A stretch of DNA of 64,000 bases from Promethearchaeota archaeon (GTDB lineage: Archaea; Asgardarchaeota; Lokiarchaeia; Sigyniarchaeales; SOKP01): assembly GCA_019058245.1 (NCBI GenBank), contig JAHPZJ010000017.1, positions 43,134 to 107,133 on the forward strand. Direction: 5' to 3'. The notes beneath the pieces were generated by a model. That model worked only from the letters and a program-made list of their open reading frames with translations. It did not search any database and was not told where the DNA came from. Below, piece by piece: positions 39,069 to 49,314 of this stretch; positions within the stretch are counted from its first letter, which is position 1; the number at the start of each line of letters is the position of its first letter. The translations under genes were made by a program, and so were the position numbers.

Positions 39069-41831
39069 ATGACTGAATCTAATAATAAAATACCTGGTGA
39101 TAAAATCAAAGGAAAAGATTCAATCGAGATACTTAAAAAAGTTAATACTGCAGCTAATTATTGTTATAATTGTAATCGTTGTAATAATGTATGTCCAACT
39201 GCTTTTCTCGATATCTTTTATCCGCGTAGTCTAATTACAGATTTAACTTTTCTAACACCAGAGGAAGCTTTGCAAAATAATGATATTTGGAAGTGTCTCA
39301 CATGTGGTTTATGTTCAATCTATTGCCCCATGACTAAAGAAAGCACTGGAGTAAATTTTACGCAAATTATTAAGGATCTTCGATCTCTTGCTTCAGATTA
39401 TAAGCCATTACAAGAGGGATTATTAAGTTGTAATCATGAGAGGGTATATTCTAGTCTACCGAAATTAATGGCTGAAGACAAAATTAAATTTACTAATAAG
39501 ATTGGTTTTCTTGATGGAACAGGATTAAAGACGACATATAAAGGAGAAATTGGTTATTTTATGGGATGTGTTCCCTTTTTAACAGGTGCGGCTCCTTGTG
39601 TTGTAGGATGCCCTGCTGGAGTAGACGTTCAAGGATACGTCTCGCTTATAGCAGAAGGTAAATTCCAAGAAGCTCTCGATCTTATTAGAGAAACTAATCC
39701 ATTACCATATTTATGTGGGAGAATTTGTACAGCTCAATGTGCATTAAATTGTAACCGTCAATATTTCGATGATCCCGTAGCTATTCGTGAACTTAAAAGA
39801 TTTGTTTGTGATTGGGAAAAAGAGCATCCTAACCAAAGCAGAATAAAACCAGTTCCACAGACTAAGGAGAAGGTTGCCATTATTGGAGCTGGACCAGGAG
39901 GATTATCAGCAGCATATTTCCTTGCAAGAATGGGATATAAACCTACAATTTTCGAGAAAGGAGATAAAATTGGCGGCGTAGTAAGATATGGAGTCCCACA
40001 ATATAGACTTTCTGATGAAGCATTTGACCAAGACATTAAATTCATAAAGAGTATGGGTGTGGAAATTGTTTTAAACAAAGAATTTGGTCCCAATTATACC
40101 TTAGAAGATATTTGGAAAGACGGATATAAAGCAGTCTTCATTGCTGTAGGTTTATATGTACCAAAAACTCTTAGACTCGAAGGAGAAAACTTACCTAATG
40201 TAGATGTTGCAATTGATTTTCTGCTAGAACGAAAATATAAGTGTGCTGAAAATCCAGAAGAGTTTAAAGGCAAAACTTTTGGTATTATTGGAGGTGGTGC
40301 AGTTGCAATAGATGTTGCTGAGACAGTAGTCCGACTTGGAGCAACTAAAGCGAATTTAGTTGACATATTAAGTGAAGATGCTCTTAAAAATATACTTAAA
40401 GATTTACATGAAGCTGAACGAGAAGTAATTGAATATCATTTTGAAACATCTACAGCTAAGATCACTCAAGAACCAGATGAAAAATTAGCATTAAATTGTT
40501 ATAAAATTGAATGGGGAGACCCTGATCCCCAAACTGGGAGAAGACCACTGAATAAAATTATTGGTTCAGAATATAAAATTATTGTTGACTATATTGTGAT
40601 AGCAATAGGGCAAGGTCTTAATGCAGAACCACTTCTTGTTGCTACTGAAAGCCAGTTAAATATTGATAGGGGAAAAGTTATAGTTGATAATCTAACCTAT
40701 GAAACTAGCATTCCAGGAGTTTTTGCTGGCGGAGATATCATTAATAACTCATTAATGTGTGCTGTCGATGCTATTGGTGATGGAAGGGAAGCGGCTTATT
40801 CGATTGACAGATATCTCCGAGGAATTGATTTAAAAGAAGGAAGAATTAGAAAGAATGATCTAAAAAGGTCTACTATACCTAAAAAATATATTCAAGTTCA
40901 AGCATGTCAAGACATGAATTATATACCTGGTCCTGAGCGATTGGCTTGTTTTGATGAAATGGAGTTAGGATTTACTGAGAAACAAGCGAAAGAAGAATCT
41001 AATCGATGTTTGAATTGTAATTGTTGCTGTAATTCTGATCAAATCCCAGAGGATTATGACAATGCGCTTGATCCTTCTGGAATTATGATATGTGATTATG
41101 GAAATCAAAATATGTGGCCTTCAATAAATGCACCTAATTATTATAATATTCCCAAAAGTGTAATAGGTTTATTAAACCAAAATGATATAGTTCCTGTTGT
41201 TTTACCAGAAGAAAAATGTTGTGGACATGATGCTCTTTGGCGTGGAGATTTTGAAACATTTAAATCTCTCGCGGAATATAATGTTAAATTATTTAAAGAT
41301 GCGGGAGTTAAGACGCTAGTCTTTAGCTGCGCTGAAGGATATTATACGTGGAAACATGAATATAAAAATTTGTTTAAAAGTAGTAATGACTTCGATTTTG
41401 AGATATATCATATTACTGAATATATTTTAAAAAAAAATCTACTAGAAAGTATAACATTTCCTGACTATGAAAAAATTAAAGTAACTTACCATGATCCTTG
41501 TAGACTTGGGAGAATGAGCGGCGTTTTTGATGCTCCTCGTGAAGTATTAAAACTTATACCTTCCATAGAATTAGTTGAAATGGAGGATACAAAGCAAGAT
41601 GCAGAATGTTGTGGTGTTTCTGCATATATTTCATGTAATCAAGATTCGAAAAAATTACAGGAAAAAAAAATATTAAGCGCAATAGAAACTGGAGCAAAAT
41701 ATCTTATTACAGCATGCCCTAAATGTATTGCTCATTTAAATTGCTATCTAAACGAGAATAGAGAATTAAAAAATAAAATGGAAGTTGTCGATATCGTTAG
41801 CTTTCTTGGAAAATTACTCTTTTTAATTTAA
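39069..41831 (+). CDS. HdrD-like heterodisulfide reductase (2x4Fe-4S + CCG domains) with inserted NfnB/GltD-like FAD/NAD(P)H module
   Basis: CYNCNRCNNVCP, CLTCGLCSIYCP, YFMGC; then APCxxGCP, CGRIC, GAGPGG, GGGAVA, FAGGD, RCLNC; then EKCCG, YHDPC, CCG, TACPKC. Confidence 0.85.
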   Translation: MTESNNKIPGDKIKGKDSIEILKKVNTAANYCYNCNRCNNVCPTAFLDIFYPRSLITDLTFLTPEEALQNNDIWKCLTCGLCSIYCPMTKESTGVNFTQIIKDLRSLASDYKPLQEGLLSCNHERVYSSLPKLMAEDKIKFTNKIGFLDGTGLKTTYKGEIGYFMGCVPFLTGAAPCVVGCPAGVDVQGYVSLIAEGKFQEALDLIRETNPLPYLCGRICTAQCALNCNRQYFDDPVAIRELKRFVCDWEKEHPNQSRIKPVPQTKEKVAIIGAGPGGLSAAYFLARMGYKPTIFEKGDKIGGVVRYGVPQYRLSDEAFDQDIKFIKSMGVEIVLNKEFGPNYTLEDIWKDGYKAVFIAVGLYVPKTLRLEGENLPNVDVAIDFLLERKYKCAENPEEFKGKTFGIIGGGAVAIDVAETVVRLGATKANLVDILSEDALKNILKDLHEAEREVIEYHFETSTAKITQEPDEKLALNCYKIEWGDPDPQTGRRPLNKIIGSEYKIIVDYIVIAIGQGLNAEPLLVATESQLNIDRGKVIVDNLTYETSIPGVFAGGDIINNSLMCAVDAIGDGREAAYSIDRYLRGIDLKEGRIRKNDLKRSTIPKKYIQVQACQDMNYIPGPERLACFDEMELGFTEKQAKEESNRCLNCNCCCNSDQIPEDYDNALDPSGIMICDYGNQNMWPSINAPNYYNIPKSVIGLLNQNDIVPVVLPEEKCCGHDALWRGDFETFKSLAEYNVKLFKDAGVKTLVFSCAEGYYTWKHEYKNLFKSSNDFDFEIYHITEYILKKNLLESITFPDYEKIKVTYHDPCRLGRMSGVFDAPREVLKLIPSIELVEMEDTKQDAECCGVSAYISCNQDSKKLQEKKILSAIETGAKYLITACPKCIAHLNCYLNENRELKNKMEVVDIVSFLGKLLFLI

Positions 41832-42067
41832 TTTTCATTTTTGAATAAAATCTTAAATAGTTCTAAATAATAATCTATTTATAGTTTTTCTTTTACAAAT
41901 TTGTATATATTCCTATTTTATTTCCCAATTAATTACATAAAAGTGCTGGTTATTAATTTAATATGGGAGATTTTTTAGATTAACAAGTAACCTTTAAAAT
42001 TTTGATAATTTATTTTTAATATCTATAATCTATTCAAAATATAAATATACAACTAGTTGTAAAAAAC

Positions 42068-43990
42068 ATGAGTAAAACTAAAGAAATACCTGTTCCTGAT
42101 AAAGTTATGGGTTTTAGTCAAGTAAGACTTGATGTAGACTTGAAAAATGGGAAGATTAGTAAATCAACATTATCTAATGATTTCTGTCGCGATTGGATCG
42201 GAGGATATGGATTTGGTGCTAAAGTCTTATGGGATGAATGTCCTGCAGGTGTTGATCCTTTAAGTCCAGAAAACGTATTTATATATGCGCATGGTCCATT
42301 TCCAGGTACTATCTTACCAACAAGTTCTAAATATGGTGTATTTGCTAAATCTCCATTAACTAATATGTTTGGTATGGCAATATCTTCTGGATCAGTTGCC
42401 GCTCAAGCTCGTCGAGCTGGTGTCAATATGATCGTTTTTAAAGATAAAGCGCCAGAACTTTCATATATGGTTGTGGATGATGATGATTATTATATTGTTC
42501 CATGCCCTGAACTTGCGGGAAAAGGTTGTTGGGAAACTGAAGAAATCCTGCGAGAAGAATTTCAAGATTACAGATTAGCGGTTTTATCGATGGGTCCAGC
42601 TGGAGAACGAATGAGCAGAATGGCATGTATAACCAATGATCGTAATAGACAGGCAGGGAGAACCGGAATGGGTGCTGTTATGGGCTCTAAAAATCTTAAA
42701 GCTGTATGCTTTAGAGGTACAAAAGGTATAAAGGTTGCTCAACCCGTTGAATTTTATAAGCTAGCGAAAAAATTAATTAAGGTTGCTAATGGTCCTGCTA
42801 CTGCCAAATATCGAGATTTAGGTACTCCTTCAGGTTTGACAAGCTATAATAAGTTGGGAATGATGCCAACATTTAATCATCGCGAAGGAACCTGGGAAAA
42901 AATTGATGATGGAACTTTTACAGGAGAAACACTCAATAATGACTGGGTAGTGAAAAAGGTTGCATGTTCTCAATGTTCAATTGCATGTGATCATATTACT
43001 AAGGTACCAAAAACACACCCTCATTGGCCTAACTTATATGCCAGTATTGATGTTGAACTATGTTATGGGTTCGGTACTGCTACAGGATGCTATGATTGGC
43101 CTACAGTATTTAAATGTGTTCAATTATGTGATGATTTAGGGATTGATGCCATTTCTGGAGGTGTAACTGCAGCAATGGCATGTGAGTTATATGATATAGG
43201 GATGATCACTGAAAAGGAGTTGGGCTATGAATTACCTTTTGGATCAACTGTAAATCTTGTAAAATTCACAGAGGAAATGATACTTGGTAAGGGTTTTGCA
43301 GGAGAAATATTTGGTGATGGTACTAAACAAGCAGGTATACGATTAGAAGAAATGGGTAAAAAAAATGCTGGATATTATGGCATGCATATAAAAGGTTTAG
43401 AAATGCCTGCATTTGATCTTCATGGAATGTCCTCATTCGCTGTTGGAGAAAGTGTTTCAATAAGAGGAGCATGTCATTTAAGAAATGGATCTTATGGGCT
43501 TGATGCTAAGGGGAATTTTGATAGATTCGCTTACGATAAACCTCTTGAAAGAGGAAAGGCCATCAAGGATCTGGAAGACATTTACGCTATTATAGATTCA
43601 TATATTGTGTGTAAATTCACACGAGGAATTTATGAAGATGATGCTGAAATGGCAAAAGTTTTTGAACTTGTCACTGGAATTCCAGTTACTGAAGAATTTA
43701 TTCAACATAGAGGAAATGCAATCGTAAATCTTTCAAAATGCTTTAACATTCGACAAGGATGGACACGAGACGATGATCATCCCCCTGAAAGATTCTTTAA
43801 AGAAGCACATACAAAAGGACCAGCAAAGGGAGTGACATTGAAAGAAGATGGATACCAAAAATTATTAAGTGGCTATTATGAAGCTCGAGGTTGGGATACA
43901 AAAACAGGAATTCCCACTGATGAAACTTTGAAATCATTAGGATTAGATTTTGTAATTGGTAAATTAAAATCTACTGGAGGGAAGAAATAG
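42068..43990 (+). CDS. aor: Tungsten-dependent aldehyde:ferredoxin oxidoreductase
   Basis: WIGGYG, KSPLT, QAGRTGMGAVMGSKNLKA, CSQCSIAC, CDDLGID, RGACH, YYEARGWD. Confidence 0.9.
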   Translation: MSKTKEIPVPDKVMGFSQVRLDVDLKNGKISKSTLSNDFCRDWIGGYGFGAKVLWDECPAGVDPLSPENVFIYAHGPFPGTILPTSSKYGVFAKSPLTNMFGMAISSGSVAAQARRAGVNMIVFKDKAPELSYMVVDDDDYYIVPCPELAGKGCWETEEILREEFQDYRLAVLSMGPAGERMSRMACITNDRNRQAGRTGMGAVMGSKNLKAVCFRGTKGIKVAQPVEFYKLAKKLIKVANGPATAKYRDLGTPSGLTSYNKLGMMPTFNHREGTWEKIDDGTFTGETLNNDWVVKKVACSQCSIACDHITKVPKTHPHWPNLYASIDVELCYGFGTATGCYDWPTVFKCVQLCDDLGIDAISGGVTAAMACELYDIGMITEKELGYELPFGSTVNLVKFTEEMILGKGFAGEIFGDGTKQAGIRLEEMGKKNAGYYGMHIKGLEMPAFDLHGMSSFAVGESVSIRGACHLRNGSYGLDAKGNFDRFAYDKPLERGKAIKDLEDIYAIIDSYIVCKFTRGIYEDDAEMAKVFELVTGIPVTEEFIQHRGNAIVNLSKCFNIRQGWTRDDDHPPERFFKEAHTKGPAKGVTLKEDGYQKLLSGYYEARGWDTKTGIPTDETLKSLGLDFVIGKLKSTGGKK

Positions 43991-44551
43991 ATGTCAAAAG
44001 TAAAAACAACTAAAAAAAGAGGTGGAGTTGTACACCAATTCATAGTTGTTGATCCTGACTTATGCACAGGTTGCGAAACTTGCGAATCTGTTTGTTCATT
44101 TGTCCATGATGGAGAATTTAATCCTATAAATACAAGAATTCATAGAGTTCGGATTGAACCAATCTTAAATGTCGCATTAGCATGCCAAAAGTGTGACGAT
44201 GCACCATGTGTTCGAAGTTGTCCTGAAAAAGCCTTAGAACAAGATAAAGAAACAGGTTCAATTATAGTAGATGACGATAAATGTAATGGGTGTGCTTTTT
44301 GTATTCGTGCCTGTGATTTTGGTGTATTAAGTTTACATATTCAATCCCAAAAAGCTTTAATTTGTGACCTCTGTGAAACCATGAAGGATGATTTTATAGA
44401 TCCTGAACGGGGTGAAAAATATCCTGCTTGTATTGATGTTTGCCCAAAAGAAGCTATCTCATTAAAAGATGTTGAACAAATAGGGGAAGAAAAGCGTATT
44501 GATGCTGTAAAGAGGTTATTTCGGGAGATAATAGAGGAAACTAAGGCGTAA
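43991..44551 (+). CDS. 4Fe-4S dicluster electron-transfer subunit (AorB/DmsB-like)
   Basis: CTGCETCESVC, CQKCDDAPCVRSCP, CNGCAFCIRAC, CDLC..PACIDVCP. Abuts aor. Confidence 0.9.
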   Translation: MSKVKTTKKRGGVVHQFIVVDPDLCTGCETCESVCSFVHDGEFNPINTRIHRVRIEPILNVALACQKCDDAPCVRSCPEKALEQDKETGSIIVDDDKCNGCAFCIRACDFGVLSLHIQSQKALICDLCETMKDDFIDPERGEKYPACIDVCPKEAISLKDVEQIGEEKRIDAVKRLFREIIEETKA

Positions 44552-45538: not shown

Positions 45539-47515
45539 ATGTCTGATAAACAGACCAATGAAAAAAATAACGAAGATCAACCAAGAATAGGTGTGTTTGT
45601 ATGCCATTGAGGTATCAATATCGCAGGAATCTTAGACATACCAAAGATAGTCGAAGAAATAAATAAATTAGATAATGTTTGGGCTTATCCATATTTATCA
45701 TTATGTACTGAAGGTGGTTCCACCGAGATCAAAGAAAAACATGAAGAAATTAAATTTAATAGAGTTTTGGTCGCTGCTTGCACTCCAAAAACACATCAAC
45801 CTGTTTTCCATGCAATATTGACAGAGATGGGTTTACCTCCAAGATACTTGGAATTTGTAAACATTCGAGAACATTGTTCTTTTGTACATCAAGCTCCAGA
45901 AGTACGTGAAAAAGCTACTCTAAAAGCTATTGAATTAATTAGAGCTGGGATTGCCAGAGCAAAATTATTAGAAGATGTCCCAACAAAAACCGTACCAGTA
46001 GAACCAGCAGCTTTAGTAGTAGGTGGAGGAATTGCTGGTTTGTCTGCTGCTATAGATTTAGGTGATGTGGGATATAAAGTCTATTTAGTTGAAAAGAATA
46101 CAACTATAGGAGGACGTATGTCCCAACTTGATAGAACTTTCCCTACAGATGATTGTTCTATATGAATATTGGGACCAAAAATGCTTGAAGCTAACCGTCA
46201 TCCAAATATAGAAATCTTATCTTACAGTGAAGTAGATAAAATTGATGGATATATTGGGAATTTCGAAGTTAAAGTAAGAAAGAAGGCTCGATTTGTTCTT
46301 GAGGATAAATGTACAGGTTGTGGTACTTGTACAGATGTATGCCCCGTTTACATAAGTAATTACTTTGATGAGCATCTTTCAGCAAGAAAGGTTATCGATA
46401 TTGCATTTGCACAAGCAGTTCCCGCAATATCACAACTTGATAGAGCAGCATGTATCGAATGTTTTGCATGTGTAGATGCTTGCGAACAATCAGCTATAGA
46501 TTTTAGCCAGCAAGATGAAATCGTAGAACTTAAAATTGGCACGATAATAGTTGCCACTGGTTGGGATCTTTACCAAGGAGATGACTATGGATATGGTATT
46601 TATGACAATGTAATTAATCAAATAGAATTAGAGAGGATTCTTGCTCCAAATGGTCCAACTTATGGTCATTTAAAGCGCCCTTCTGATGGTAAACGTCCTT
46701 CAAAAGTGCTCTTTATTAATTGTGTTGGATCAAGAGATATCAATAAAAATGCTCATTGTAGTGTAATTTGTTGTAATCTCTCTCTAAAAAATTCTAAACT
46801 TATCAAATCAGAATATCCAGATTCACAAATTGTTTGCGTATACATAGATATGAGATGCGCTGGTAAAGACTATGAAGAATACTATAGAAGATCTCGGGAT
46901 GCGGGAATTATTTTTGTTAAAGGATTAGTGGGAAAAATTGAAGAAGATCCGCTAACAAAAAACCTTAAAGTACAGTTTGAGCCAGTTGGAACAGATTCTG
47001 TTGTTTCTATGGAATTCCATATGGTGGTATTGTCGTCTGCTTCACTTCCATCTAAAGGTACAGTTGAAATTGCTAAAGTATTAAATATGGAAAAAAGTCC
47101 TGACGGATTTTTAAAAGAATATCATGCGCGCCTTGATCCTATTAGTACAAAAGTACCTGGAATATATATCTGTGGCTCTGCTCAAGGTCAGAAAGAGATT
47201 GATAAAGCAGTAAGTCAAGCTCGAGGAGCAGCATCCGTAGCAGGTATTCCAATGAGTAAAGGAGAATATACTATGGAATTAATTCGAGCCACTCCATCAG
47301 ATGAAAGATGTGCAAAATGCTATAAATGCATAGAGGCTTGTCCATATAGTGCAATCTCTGTGAATGAACAAGGAAATATTGTTGTTAACCTGATCAATTG
47401 TCGAGGATGTGGAACTTGTGCATCTTTATGTCCTTCGAAAGCTATTGAGCTAAGGTACTTTAGAGATGATCAATATATGGCAATAATAGATGAATTATTA
47501 CCAATAGAGGAATAA
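45539..47515 (+). CDS. hdrA: Heterodisulfide reductase subunit A, selenoprotein (Sec24, Sec209), 658 aa
   Basis: ATG 45539 with AGGTGA SD. In-frame TGA 45608-45610 in RIGVFVCH-U-GINIA (normally CHCG) and TGA 46163-46165 in FPTDDCSI-U-ILGPKM (normally DCxxC). Track ORFs 45767 and 46169 are both in this frame. Confidence 0.93.
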
Positions 47516-47528
47516 AGAGGTAAAGAAA

Positions 47529-47987
47529 ATGGCAGAAACAAATGATATTAAAATAATTGTTTATGCTTGTTGGAAATGAGGATATGGTTCAGCGGATATG
47601 GCAGGTACTATTCGAGCTCAGTATCCAGATTCGATTCGAAATATATTGGTACCTTGCTCTGGACGTGTAGGACCAGATCTGATAATGCGAGCATTAGGAA
47701 GAGGTGCAGATGGCGTAGTTATTAATGCTTGATATCCTGGTGAATGCGATTATGAGACAGGAAATTACCATGCATATAGACAAGTAGAATACATTAAAGA
47801 AATTTTAAAAATCGTTGGCATGAGTCCAAATAGGTTAAAAATAATCTATTGTACCGCTGCTGAAGGTCAGAAATTTCAAAATGAAGCTATTGAAATGGAT
47901 AAAACTATCCGTAAATTAGGGCCAAGTCCTCTACGTACGAAAAGCACACCTAAAAAAGAAAAAGCTAAAGCAAAAGCTAAAGCTTAA
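47529..47987 (+). CDS. mvhD: MvhD/VhuD 2Fe-2S subunit, selenoprotein (Sec17, Sec68), 152 aa
   Basis: MAETNDIKIIVYACWK-U-GYGSADMAG..YP..VPCSGRV..GADGVVINA-U-YPGECDY..GN..AAEG..LGPSPLR. TGA at 47577-47579 and 47730-47732, TAA at 47985-47987. Absent from the ORF track. Confidence 0.93.
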
Positions 47988-47993
47988 AAAATA

Positions 47994-48067
47994 ATGTGTT
48001 TACTAATGAAACTGGGTTAAAAAAAATGAGAACTCAGTTGAAGAAATGGGTGCACCATATAACACAT
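47994..48067 (+). ncRNA. Eukaryote-like SECIS element (3' UTR of hdrA-mvhD)
   Basis: Lower stem ATGTGTT(47994-48000)/AACACAT(48061-48067); AUGA core at 48006-48009; 9-bp upper stem AACTGGGTT/AACTCAGTT; A-rich apical loop AAAAAAAATGAG; 3' GA at 48040-48041. Confidence 0.85.
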
Positions 48068-48174: not shown

Positions 48175-49314
48175 ATGGATGCAATTGCAGAATATTTAAT
48201 AAAGATAGAAGATTTCTCTAAAATCTTGACAGCTTTATTAAAAGAAAAAGCAGTGGATAAAATAATCGGAGCTGAATTGAGAGTTGATAAAAAATCTGGA
48301 AATATTGATAGATTTACCGTTCAACCAAAATTAGTAGAAAAAGAAGAAGATCTAAAAGATTTTCCATTAACTCCTTTAATTGCATTTGGATATGCAAGAA
48401 CGGATTCTGCTTCAAAATTTTTGCATAAATCCGTTGCAGGTGCAATGAATGAAAAAATAGGGCTTATCGCACGACCGTGTGACACTAGAGCCTTAATAGA
48501 ACTTGCAAAAATAAAACAAGTAAACCTCGATAATCTTTTTATAATTGGTCTTGAAGATAGAGGTATGCTTCCTAAAGCAGGAAGAGAAATGAGAGCAATT
48601 AAGGATGTTGATCCAACTAAAATTGTAAAAGAAAAGGTTGGAGATAACGGTCTAATTGTGAAAATGGAAGATGGAAGTACAAAAGAATTTAATCTTTCGG
48701 TTGCCGAGAATTGTCTGAGATGTTATCGTAAAATCCCTACAATCGCTGATTTGACGGTTAGTGATCTTGGAATTCCAATAGATTCAGATGAGATTATCTT
48801 GAAAGTATATTCCGAAAAAGGTAGTGAAATTTTAGATAAATCAGGAATTAAAACTAAACAACTTCCAGATAAAGAGAAAAAGGCTCATTTAGATAAATAT
48901 AACGAAATTATTGAAAAAGCAAAAGAAAAACGAGCAAAAGATTTAGAAGAATGGAGTAAAATTCCTCAAAAAGAAAAGATAGCAGAACTTCTTAAATGCA
49001 CTATGTGTAATACTTGCATAAGAGGGTGCCCTGTTTGCTATTGTGTGGACTGTATTTTACAGAAAAAGAGGAAAGATAAGAATATTGATAAAGCTACTTA
49101 CCAATTAACACGAATAGCGCATGTTGCTGATAGATGCGTAGAATGTGGAAACTGCGATAATAATTGTCCTCAAAATCTGCCATTATCTCTCTATTTTCAG
49201 TCATTAAATGATACTTTTAAAGAAAAATTTAGTCATGAAGCAGGGATGTCTGTTAATGATATTCCATTTCGATCTGGAAAAGCAATTTCCCAGATGGAAT
49301 TAGAGAAAACATAA
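48175..49314 (+). CDS. Coenzyme F420 hydrogenase/formate dehydrogenase beta subunit-like (FrhB/FdhB) protein
   Basis: IGLIARPCDTRALIEL, ENCLRC, ADL, C-terminal CTMCNTCIRGCPVCYC and H..DRCVECGNCDNNCP typical of FdhB. Confidence 0.85.
   Translation: MDAIAEYLIKIEDFSKILTALLKEKAVDKIIGAELRVDKKSGNIDRFTVQPKLVEKEEDLKDFPLTPLIAFGYARTDSASKFLHKSVAGAMNEKIGLIARPCDTRALIELAKIKQVNLDNLFIIGLEDRGMLPKAGREMRAIKDVDPTKIVKEKVGDNGLIVKMEDGSTKEFNLSVAENCLRCYRKIPTIADLTVSDLGIPIDSDEIILKVYSEKGSEILDKSGIKTKQLPDKEKKAHLDKYNEIIEKAKEKRAKDLEEWSKIPQKEKIAELLKCTMCNTCIRGCPVCYCVDCILQKKRKDKNIDKATYQLTRIAHVADRCVECGNCDNNCPQNLPLSLYFQSLNDTFKEKFSHEAGMSVNDIPFRSGKAISQMELEKT

Follow-up and report, generated by a model that had tools for sequence, protein, structure and literature searches.

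Results

The hdrA-vhuD locus contains four in-frame UGA codons

We analysed a stretch of 64,000 nucleotides from a Promethearchaeota archaeon (assembly GCA_019058245.1, contig JAHPZJ010000017.1, positions 43,134 to 107,133 of the forward strand), which is called the window below and whose first letter is position 1. The gene under study is hdrA, which lies on the forward strand and contains two in-frame UGA codons, and it is followed closely by a vhuD/mvhD gene that contains two more. The coding features of the locus were as follows (Sec, selenocysteine; FeS, iron-sulfur; FAD, flavin adenine dinucleotide).

45539..47515, + strand: hdrA, 658 codons and a TAA stop
HdrA domains, from Pfam/NCBIfam and solved-chain matches: N-terminal FeS domain, thioredoxin-reductase-like FAD domain, inserted ferredoxin, C-terminal ferredoxin
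45608-45610, + strand: hdrA UGA codon 24, predicted Sec, motif VCH-U-G, equivalent to Cys13 of 5odc_A
46163-46165, + strand: hdrA UGA codon 209, predicted Sec at the canonical HdrA Sec position, motif DCSI-U
47529-47987, + strand: vhuD/mvhD, 152 codons and a TAA stop, 13 nt after hdrA
47577-47579, + strand: vhuD UGA codon 17, aligned to MvhD Cys16 of solved chains
47730-47732, + strand: vhuD UGA codon 68, aligned to MvhD Cys67 of solved chains

Read-through translation of 45539-47515 (+) gave 658 residues with TGA only at codons 24 and 209, and the opposite strand of this interval was closed by many stops. Pfam and NCBIfam searches indicated a protein of the HdrA type, with two ferredoxin domains besides one FAD/Rossmann domain, and solved HdrA chains (9sfi_A with an E-value of 2e-205, 8rvu_a, 5odc_A and 7bkb_A) were matched over residues 14-654, which is the full-length HdrA architecture. 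An earlier reading of this DNA, made from the sequence only, had noticed the TGAs at codons 24 and 209 within a continuous HdrA sequence, and both the translation and the end-to-end match with solved chains bore this out. It had also stated that standard callers would break the gene into two open reading frames (ORFs) and lose the N-terminus. This is what we saw: translation table 11 gave the ORFs 45767-46165 (132 aa) and 46169-47515 (448 aa) with loss of codons 1-76, and more than 100 further database "HdrA" clusters were 444-aa fragments beginning just after codon 209. The vhuD gene (47529-47987) is invisible to ORF callers owing to its two in-frame TGAs, and its product ends in a KAKAKAKA tail.

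The alignment to cysteine homologues showed that both hdrA UGAs fall on conserved Cys, in solved HdrAs as well as in paralogues of the same genome. In 5/5 solved HdrAs, codon 24 corresponded to a Cys, the second one in the V-C-x-C-G motif (Cys13 in 5odc_A). Codon 209 stood opposite X, the Sec position, of 9sfi_A within the same D-C-x-x-U motif, and other solved HdrAs have Cys there, which is Cys197 in 5odc_A and Cys205 in M. marburgensis HdrA.

Conservation of the UGA codons in related archaea

Orthologues were scanned with one genome per species, which gave 80 loci; almost all of them carried the label Promethearchaeota or Promethearchaeia, the Asgard lineage also called Lokiarchaeota. The hdrA orthologues were 71-95% identical to the gene studied here. 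TGA was found at codon 24 in 79/79 loci that cover this position and at codon 209 in 80/80 loci, and in some loci column 56 or 81 had a further TGA. In every case hdrA ended in TAA or TAG, and the vhuD stop was TAA in every related locus. The VhuD pattern C-U-C-U-C-C was present in 78/79 loci, and in the remaining one the first Cys was unaligned.

The codon-position comparison was based on differences from 45 orthologues of the same length, and the differences per site at positions 1/2/3 were as follows.

Codons 1-23: 0.20/0.14/0.44
Codons 25-76: 0.21/0.11/0.44
Codons 77-208: 0.10/0.07/0.42
Codons 210-658: 0.13/0.06/0.44

The third-position excess was alike in all four segments (0.42-0.44 against 0.06-0.21 at positions 1 and 2), and since it is the same before, between and after the UGAs, the coding constraint spans both of them. 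Codons 22, 23 and 25 varied synonymously around a fixed TGA at codon 24. A TGC at codon 24 turned up in 1/45 of the ungapped comparisons, and gapped mapping gave U in all loci, so the lone TGC was probably a register shift in the ungapped comparison. The earlier view that hdrA is not a pseudogene is supported by the retention of the TGAs in about 80 orthologues and by coding-type substitutions on both sides of them.

The closest full-length HdrA homologues in the database (55-92% identity) had W at columns 24 and 209, and some full-length entries (P0003-P0019) also had W at column 56, 81 or 311. These W residues are apparently TGAs translated under a code in which TGA is Trp. In the public data, hdrA and its approximately 80 orthologues are thus cut at the UGAs or mistranslated, and the number of bifurcating HdrA-VhuD modules in Asgard archaea is underestimated as a result.

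A single SECIS element lies downstream of vhuD

A selenocysteine insertion sequence (SECIS) of the lokiSECIS type was found after vhuD, with the following parts.

47994-48067, + strand: shared lokiSECIS after vhuD, eukaryote-like, with a kink-turn
47994-48000/48061-48067, + strand: lower helix, 7 bp
48006-48009, + strand: AUGA core; 18 nt separate the vhuD stop codon from the SECIS
48010-48018/48031-48039, + strand: upper helix, 9 bp
48019-48030, + strand: apical loop, 12 nt, A-rich
48040-48041, + strand: GA
48046-48058, + strand: side hairpin AUGG / 5-nt loop / CCAU, between the core GA and the lower helix

The z-scores of the fold were -3.6 (whole element) and -3.4 (core). The AUGA core lies 2398 and 1843 nt from the UGAs of HdrA codons 24 and 209, and 429 and 276 nt from those of VhuD codons 17 and 68. 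A strict motif search recovered an element at the same place in 63/79 loci, most of the loci that failed it differed by a one-base bulge, and in most related loci the motif was positioned 15-24 nt past the first base of the vhuD stop. Two-sided changes were seen at 8/9 pairs of the upper helix when 63 distinct elements were aligned, and in slid controls the paired fraction fell from 95% to 16-49%, the former percentage being inflated as the loci were picked for at least 7/9 pairs. RNAalifold on 33 longer stretches recovered the helix independently, with 7/8 pairs compensatory and 0 broken. The side hairpin gives the element a three-way junction and was nearly invariant in 33 relatives, so covariation is uninformative on this hairpin, for or against.

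We also looked for elements within the coding regions. The 63 nt after each of the four UGAs were compared with shuffles, and the z-scores (-0.24, +0.40, +0.67 and -0.21) were in no case beyond chance. A bacterial-type SECIS inside the ORFs was rejected, as no stable hairpin followed any of the four UGAs, and the 13-nt spacer between hdrA and vhuD has no room for a SECIS of its own. An Rfam scan of the window gave no match, lokiSECIS included, which is no argument against the element.

Sec machinery and stop-codon use of the genome

The assembly comprises 3.09 Mb in 31 contigs, is 76% complete and has 29% G+C. The sequence-only reading had named five components by which its Sec assignment could be checked, and four of them were found in the genome, namely the selenocysteine tRNA (tRNA-Sec), PSTK, SepSecS and EFSec; the fifth, SelD, is taken up below. 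SepSecS scored 472.7 bits, above its curated cut-off. PSTK was full-length, with M. jannaschii PSTK as the best solved match. The archaeal SelB/EFSec had 480 aa and an aSelB_III domain; among solved structures, 4ac9 matched it best (E 3e-87).

The tRNA-Sec gene (L003:1266-1418 (+), the same as G000:C14:82523-82675) has a UCA anticodon and lies about 80 nt upstream of SepSecS, and EFSec is on the other strand at about 4.3 kb from it. ARAGORN and the Rfam tRNA-Sec model both missed this gene, and the single "tRNA-SeC" call of ARAGORN, with a 2.9-kb intron, was spurious. We located the gene by BLAST with the intron-less tRNA-Sec of a genome of the same genus. Two introns split it, one of about 34 nt in the D arm and one of 30 nt in the T loop. 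The presumed splicing would leave a tRNA whose acceptor stem has 9 bp, whose D stem has 7 bp and whose T stem has 4 bp, with a long variable arm and the UCA anticodon. Compensatory differences from the relative were seen in the spliced sequence. Among 15 relatives searched, tRNA-Sec was above the cut-off in 10.

TGA ended 180/1268 stop-to-stop frames of at least 300 codons (14%), about as many as TAG, and reading through TGA extended long frames by a median of 10 codons. TGA is an ordinary stop in this genome.

Sec-type and Cys-type paralogues

The genome has three Sec-type hdrA-vhuD pairs including the one at 45539, each with a lokiSECIS at the vhuD stop, together with pairs of the Cys type. 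The additional copies were located as follows.

G000:C13:36156-38084, + strand: Sec-type hdrA-vhuD pair, four Sec in HdrA (columns 24, 56, 81 and 209)
G000:C28:244557-246455, - strand: Sec-type hdrA-vhuD pair, HdrA Sec at columns 24 and 209
C13:343291-345231: Cys-type hdrA-vhuD pair
C13:184521-186485: Cys-type hdrA-vhuD pair
C2:5945-7909: Cys-type hdrA-vhuD pair
C24:65615-67531: Cys-type hdrA-vhuD pair
C13:372987-374942: fifth Cys-type hdrA, without an adjacent vhuD

The four Cys-type pairs and the fifth Cys-type hdrA had Cys at every Sec column, and a lokiSECIS motif scan downstream of these Cys-type genes found no element. About nine split or double HdrA-like genes also occur in the genome.

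Interpretation of the UGA codons

We are highly confident that hdrA-vhuD is an Asgard selenoprotein operon of the Loki type, in which all four UGAs are read as Sec with one shared SECIS, and the two UGAs of hdrA very probably encode selenocysteine. This reading builds on what was observed directly, namely the integrity of the gene, the conservation of its UGAs, the SECIS and most of the Sec machinery. The UGAs at HdrA 24 and 209 and at VhuD 17 and 68 would be read by Sec-tRNA(Sec) brought by the archaeal SelB/EFSec, recoding would be directed by the eukaryote-like kink-turn SECIS 0.27 to 2.4 kb downstream of them, and the product would be a full-length, flavin-based electron-bifurcating HdrA. 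Here a single eukaryote-like SECIS apparently serves two cistrons, with four UGAs spread over 2.4 kb. The sequence-only reading of hdrA had not noted the Asgard origin of the DNA, the two UGAs of vhuD or the 3' SECIS that apparently acts on all four.

Several points weigh against this interpretation. A search of the assembly, which is 76% complete, gave no SelD (selenophosphate synthetase), and this gap is most simply put down to the incompleteness; SelD was present with one in-frame TGA in 15/15 relatives searched, often as two tandem copies. The tRNA-Sec was under the Rfam cut-off because of its two introns, the splicing of which is presumed. About 5/79 related loci had no recognisable SECIS within the 250 nt scanned, and the covariation percentage is subject to the selection of loci given above. 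The insertion of Sec at the UGAs is what we infer from sequence features. The protein also fell below all three cut-offs of the NCBIfam models, which are the methanogen HdrA equivalogs NF041778 and NF041891 and the exception model NF040770 (HdrA2): its scores were 609.6/561.1/740.4 bits, respectively, against cut-offs of 1400/1300/1100. The CoB-CoM heterodisulfide is therefore not its established substrate, and the protein is an HdrA homologue and not an established subunit of a CoB-CoM reductase. As to cluster binding by Sec, the literature disagrees on a ligand role of codon 209 (PMC9012536 against PMC13580544 and PMC13518236), and that of codon 24, which takes the place of a conserved N-domain Cys, is plausible and putative.

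Other explanations of the UGAs were weighed against the same evidence. If two nonsense mutations had inactivated hdrA, the split into two ORFs and the lost N-terminus under table 11 would be expected, but it is hardly credible that such a pseudogene would share both TGAs with about 80 orthologues at 71-95% identity and show coding-type substitutions on both sides, with the TGAs exactly on Cys columns and with a SECIS and Sec machinery present. The W residues in full-length database homologues indicate that some pipelines picked a code in which TGA is an ordinary sense codon (Trp or Gly; tables 4 and 25). We give this almost no chance, because TGA ends 14% of the long frames, the median extension is only 10 codons, and the in-frame TGAs of HdrA and VhuD occur only at Cys columns and together with a 3' SECIS.

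A further explanation is that decoding of the UGAs yields Sec only part of the time or never, owing either to near-cognate insertion of Cys or Trp or to termination and re-initiation; the latter would give an N-terminally truncated HdrA under selenium scarcity. It would fit the lack of SelD in the assembly, the HdrA forms without an N-domain that exist elsewhere (PMC9012536) and the alternative starts downstream of each UGA. We nevertheless regard it as very improbable, since the codon is strictly TGA and not TGY, since the SECIS, tRNA-Sec, SepSecS, PSTK and EFSec would be purposeless without Sec, and since SelD is present in 15/15 relatives. Cys-type paralogues are, moreover, already available for selenium-poor conditions.

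Possible roles of the Sec residues around cluster HA3

The sequence-only reading had described a Sec-ligated FeS protein with both UGAs at FeS-ligand Cys positions, and this held in part. In favour of it, codon 209 corresponds to Cys197, a reported ligand of HA3, the mobile "shuttle" [4Fe-4S] cluster; cryo-electron microscopy (cryo-EM) points instead to a relay pair. Codon 24 belongs to the four N-domain Cys positions conserved around HA3, and its ligand status stays putative. Among the five solved HdrAs, the N-domain Cys were conserved only at columns 22, 24, 56 and 81, and column 113 was not. The four N-domain Cys and the in-trans Cys197 therefore make five candidate ligands for one [4Fe-4S] cluster, two of which are Sec here, and if the ligands of HA3 come only from these five, at least one Sec would bind iron in any state. 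The second Sec could serve as a selenol relay towards FAD. The Sec sites observed in the HdrA clade (columns 24, 56, 81 and 209) were all within the five conserved Cys around HA3.

A different mechanism, which concerns the role of the Sec residues only, is that neither binds iron and both are redox-active selenols in a selenylsulfide relay between the FeS clusters and FAD. In M. maripaludis cryo-EM, density at Sec197 and a Cys between cluster A3 and FAD was read as such a selenylsulfide relay (PMC13518236). In M. marburgensis cryo-EM, Cys202 and Cys205, together with MvhD Cys16, were called "additional" cysteines, and the HdrA pair held an unknown ligand (PMC13580544). The Sec sites of Lokiarchaeota were also stated not to be cluster ligands (PMC4989117), though in a paper older than the HdrA structures. 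On the other hand, a passage of PMC9012536 that cites the crystal structure reports that the N-terminal [4Fe-4S] cluster of each HdrA is bound in trans by Cys197 of its partner, the same paper describes Cys197 and the N-domain as kept or lost together among HdrA paralogues, and only four conserved N-domain Cys are available in the five solved HdrAs, which leaves five candidate ligands with two Sec among them. We consider the pure relay rather unlikely.

For iron ligation, we tentatively put forward as possible that HA3 of Loki-type HdrA is partly selenolate-ligated, mostly in the four-Sec paralogue, or that a ligand swap between Sec 24 and Sec 209' gates bifurcation. We found no paper that places the Sec sites of Loki HdrA on HA3. 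Their placement bears on the Cys/Sec pair beside the bifurcating flavin, which might act as ligand, relay or both. A link of codon 24 to MvhD Cys16 through homology of the HdrA N-domain with MvhD was dropped, as neither BLASTP nor hhalign gave a significant alignment.

Comparison with known systems

HdrA had been named in the sequence-only reading as a known archaeal selenoprotein family, and the literature supports this with a direct precedent. HdrA.1-4/VhuD.1-4 selenoprotein gene pairs with shared lokiSECIS elements were described in Lokiarchaeota by Mariotti et al. 2016 (PMC4989117), and the survey was later widened to hundreds of Asgard genomes (PMC11227280). In the Lokiarchaeota pairs the two-Sec VhuD is always directly downstream, the hdrA stop is never UGA, and a single lokiSECIS after vhuD was proposed to act on as many as six UGAs across about 2 kb (PMC4989117). 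The gene studied here is a correct identification of this published kind, which has been known in Lokiarchaeota since 2016, and none of its features is new as a kind. The lokiSECIS feature was argued to link archaeal and eukaryotic Sec decoding (PMC4989117).

The present locus agreed with the Lokiarchaeota pairs in its multi-Sec HdrA including the canonical site near residue 200, in the two-Sec vhuD next downstream after a tiny spacer with an hdrA stop other than UGA, and in having, after vhuD and nowhere else, one element built of AUGA, a 9-bp helix, an A-rich loop of 11-12 nt and GA. The T-loop intron of tRNA-Sec and an EFSec gene on the opposite strand within a few kb were also shared (PMC4989117). 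The differences from the pairs were nothing essential: the Sec pattern is the minimal one of two (24 and 209), and the apical loop has 12 nt, not 11. For the Loki tRNA-Sec, PMC4989117 describes the T-loop intron only, whereas here there is a second intron in the D arm.

With the Sec-type methanogen HdrA (9sfi_A) the protein shares the whole-length fold and Sec at the codon-209 column in C-x-x-U, and a two-Sec VhuD partner is also known from methanogens (PMC4989117). In contrast, the methanogen enzyme has Cys at the codon-24 column, each methanococcal gene uses an archaeal-type SECIS, and the methanogen substrate is CoM-S-S-CoB, whereas methanogenesis is not known in Lokiarchaeia. The four N-domain Cys positions and the C194-x-x-C197 pair (C202/C205), with codons 24 and 209 at Cys13 and Cys197, are common to HdrABC-MvhAGD of thermophilic methanogens (5odc) and to the M. 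marburgensis Mvh-Hdr-Fmd complex (9sw2; PMC13580544). VhuD U17 is in the column of the "additional" MvhD Cys16 of 9sw2 (PMC13580544). Unlike the present proteins, those of 5odc and 9sw2 are all-Cys and have MvhAG and HdrBC genes nearby; none of these genes occurs in the window.

Genes around hdrA-vhuD

One further gene of the same strand follows directly.

48175..49314, + strand: FrhB/FdhB-like FeS flavoprotein gene, Pfam FrhB_FdhB_C and Fer4_8

The FrhB/FdhB-like gene was directly 3' of hdrA-vhuD and the SECIS on the same strand in 71/73 related loci, and if it is co-transcribed with them, the SECIS would be intercistronic and not in a 3' untranslated region. These conserved partner genes suggest that the FrhB-like protein is a donor that feeds VhuD and then HdrA, as we predict. 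The conserved gene order hdrA, mvhD-like and frhB/fdhB-like suggests a hydrogenase-independent donor module. This is no more than a resemblance to the Elp-Hdr complex of M. marburgensis, in which FdhB-like and MvhD-like proteins feed HdrA (PMC12350162). Differing from Elp-Hdr, no ElpA/FdhA-like gene was seen at this locus. No hdrBC or mvhAG genes were found within the 64-kb window. A scan for sigma-70 promoters and terminators stayed at the level of the shuffled background and was uninformative.

Upstream of hdrA, 39069-44551 (+) encodes a 920-aa protein composed of ferredoxin, GltD/NfnB-like flavin and two CCG (HdrD/HdrB-type) domains, which is followed by a tungsten-type aldehyde:ferredoxin oxidoreductase (AOR) and its FeS subunit. 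AOR genes were upstream of hdrA in 28/61 related loci, and the 920-aa gene was within 3 kb upstream of hdrA in 0 related loci.

Other Sec candidates in the genome

Two paralogous small proteins on G000:C10 contained adjacent TGA-TGA codons (HAD-U-U and GC-U-U), and each had its own lokiSECIS. Homologues with two TGAs were present in 20/21 genomes searched, this genome included. The family had no Pfam match and is not listed among the Asgard selenoprotein families of PMC11227280. Three small membrane proteins each had one in-frame TGA and a lokiSECIS-like element, and a Prx-like protein had a U-x-x-U box. The positions of these candidates were as follows.

L100:3604-4068, - strand: small protein with adjacent TGA-TGA
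L100:1725-2282, - strand: small protein with adjacent TGA-TGA
L101:830-1081, + strand: small membrane protein with one in-frame TGA
L101:1319-1534, + strand: small membrane protein with one in-frame TGA
L102:882-1142, - strand: small membrane protein with one in-frame TGA, motif GG-U-GC
G000:C30 near 36811, - strand: Prx-like protein with the U-x-x-U box

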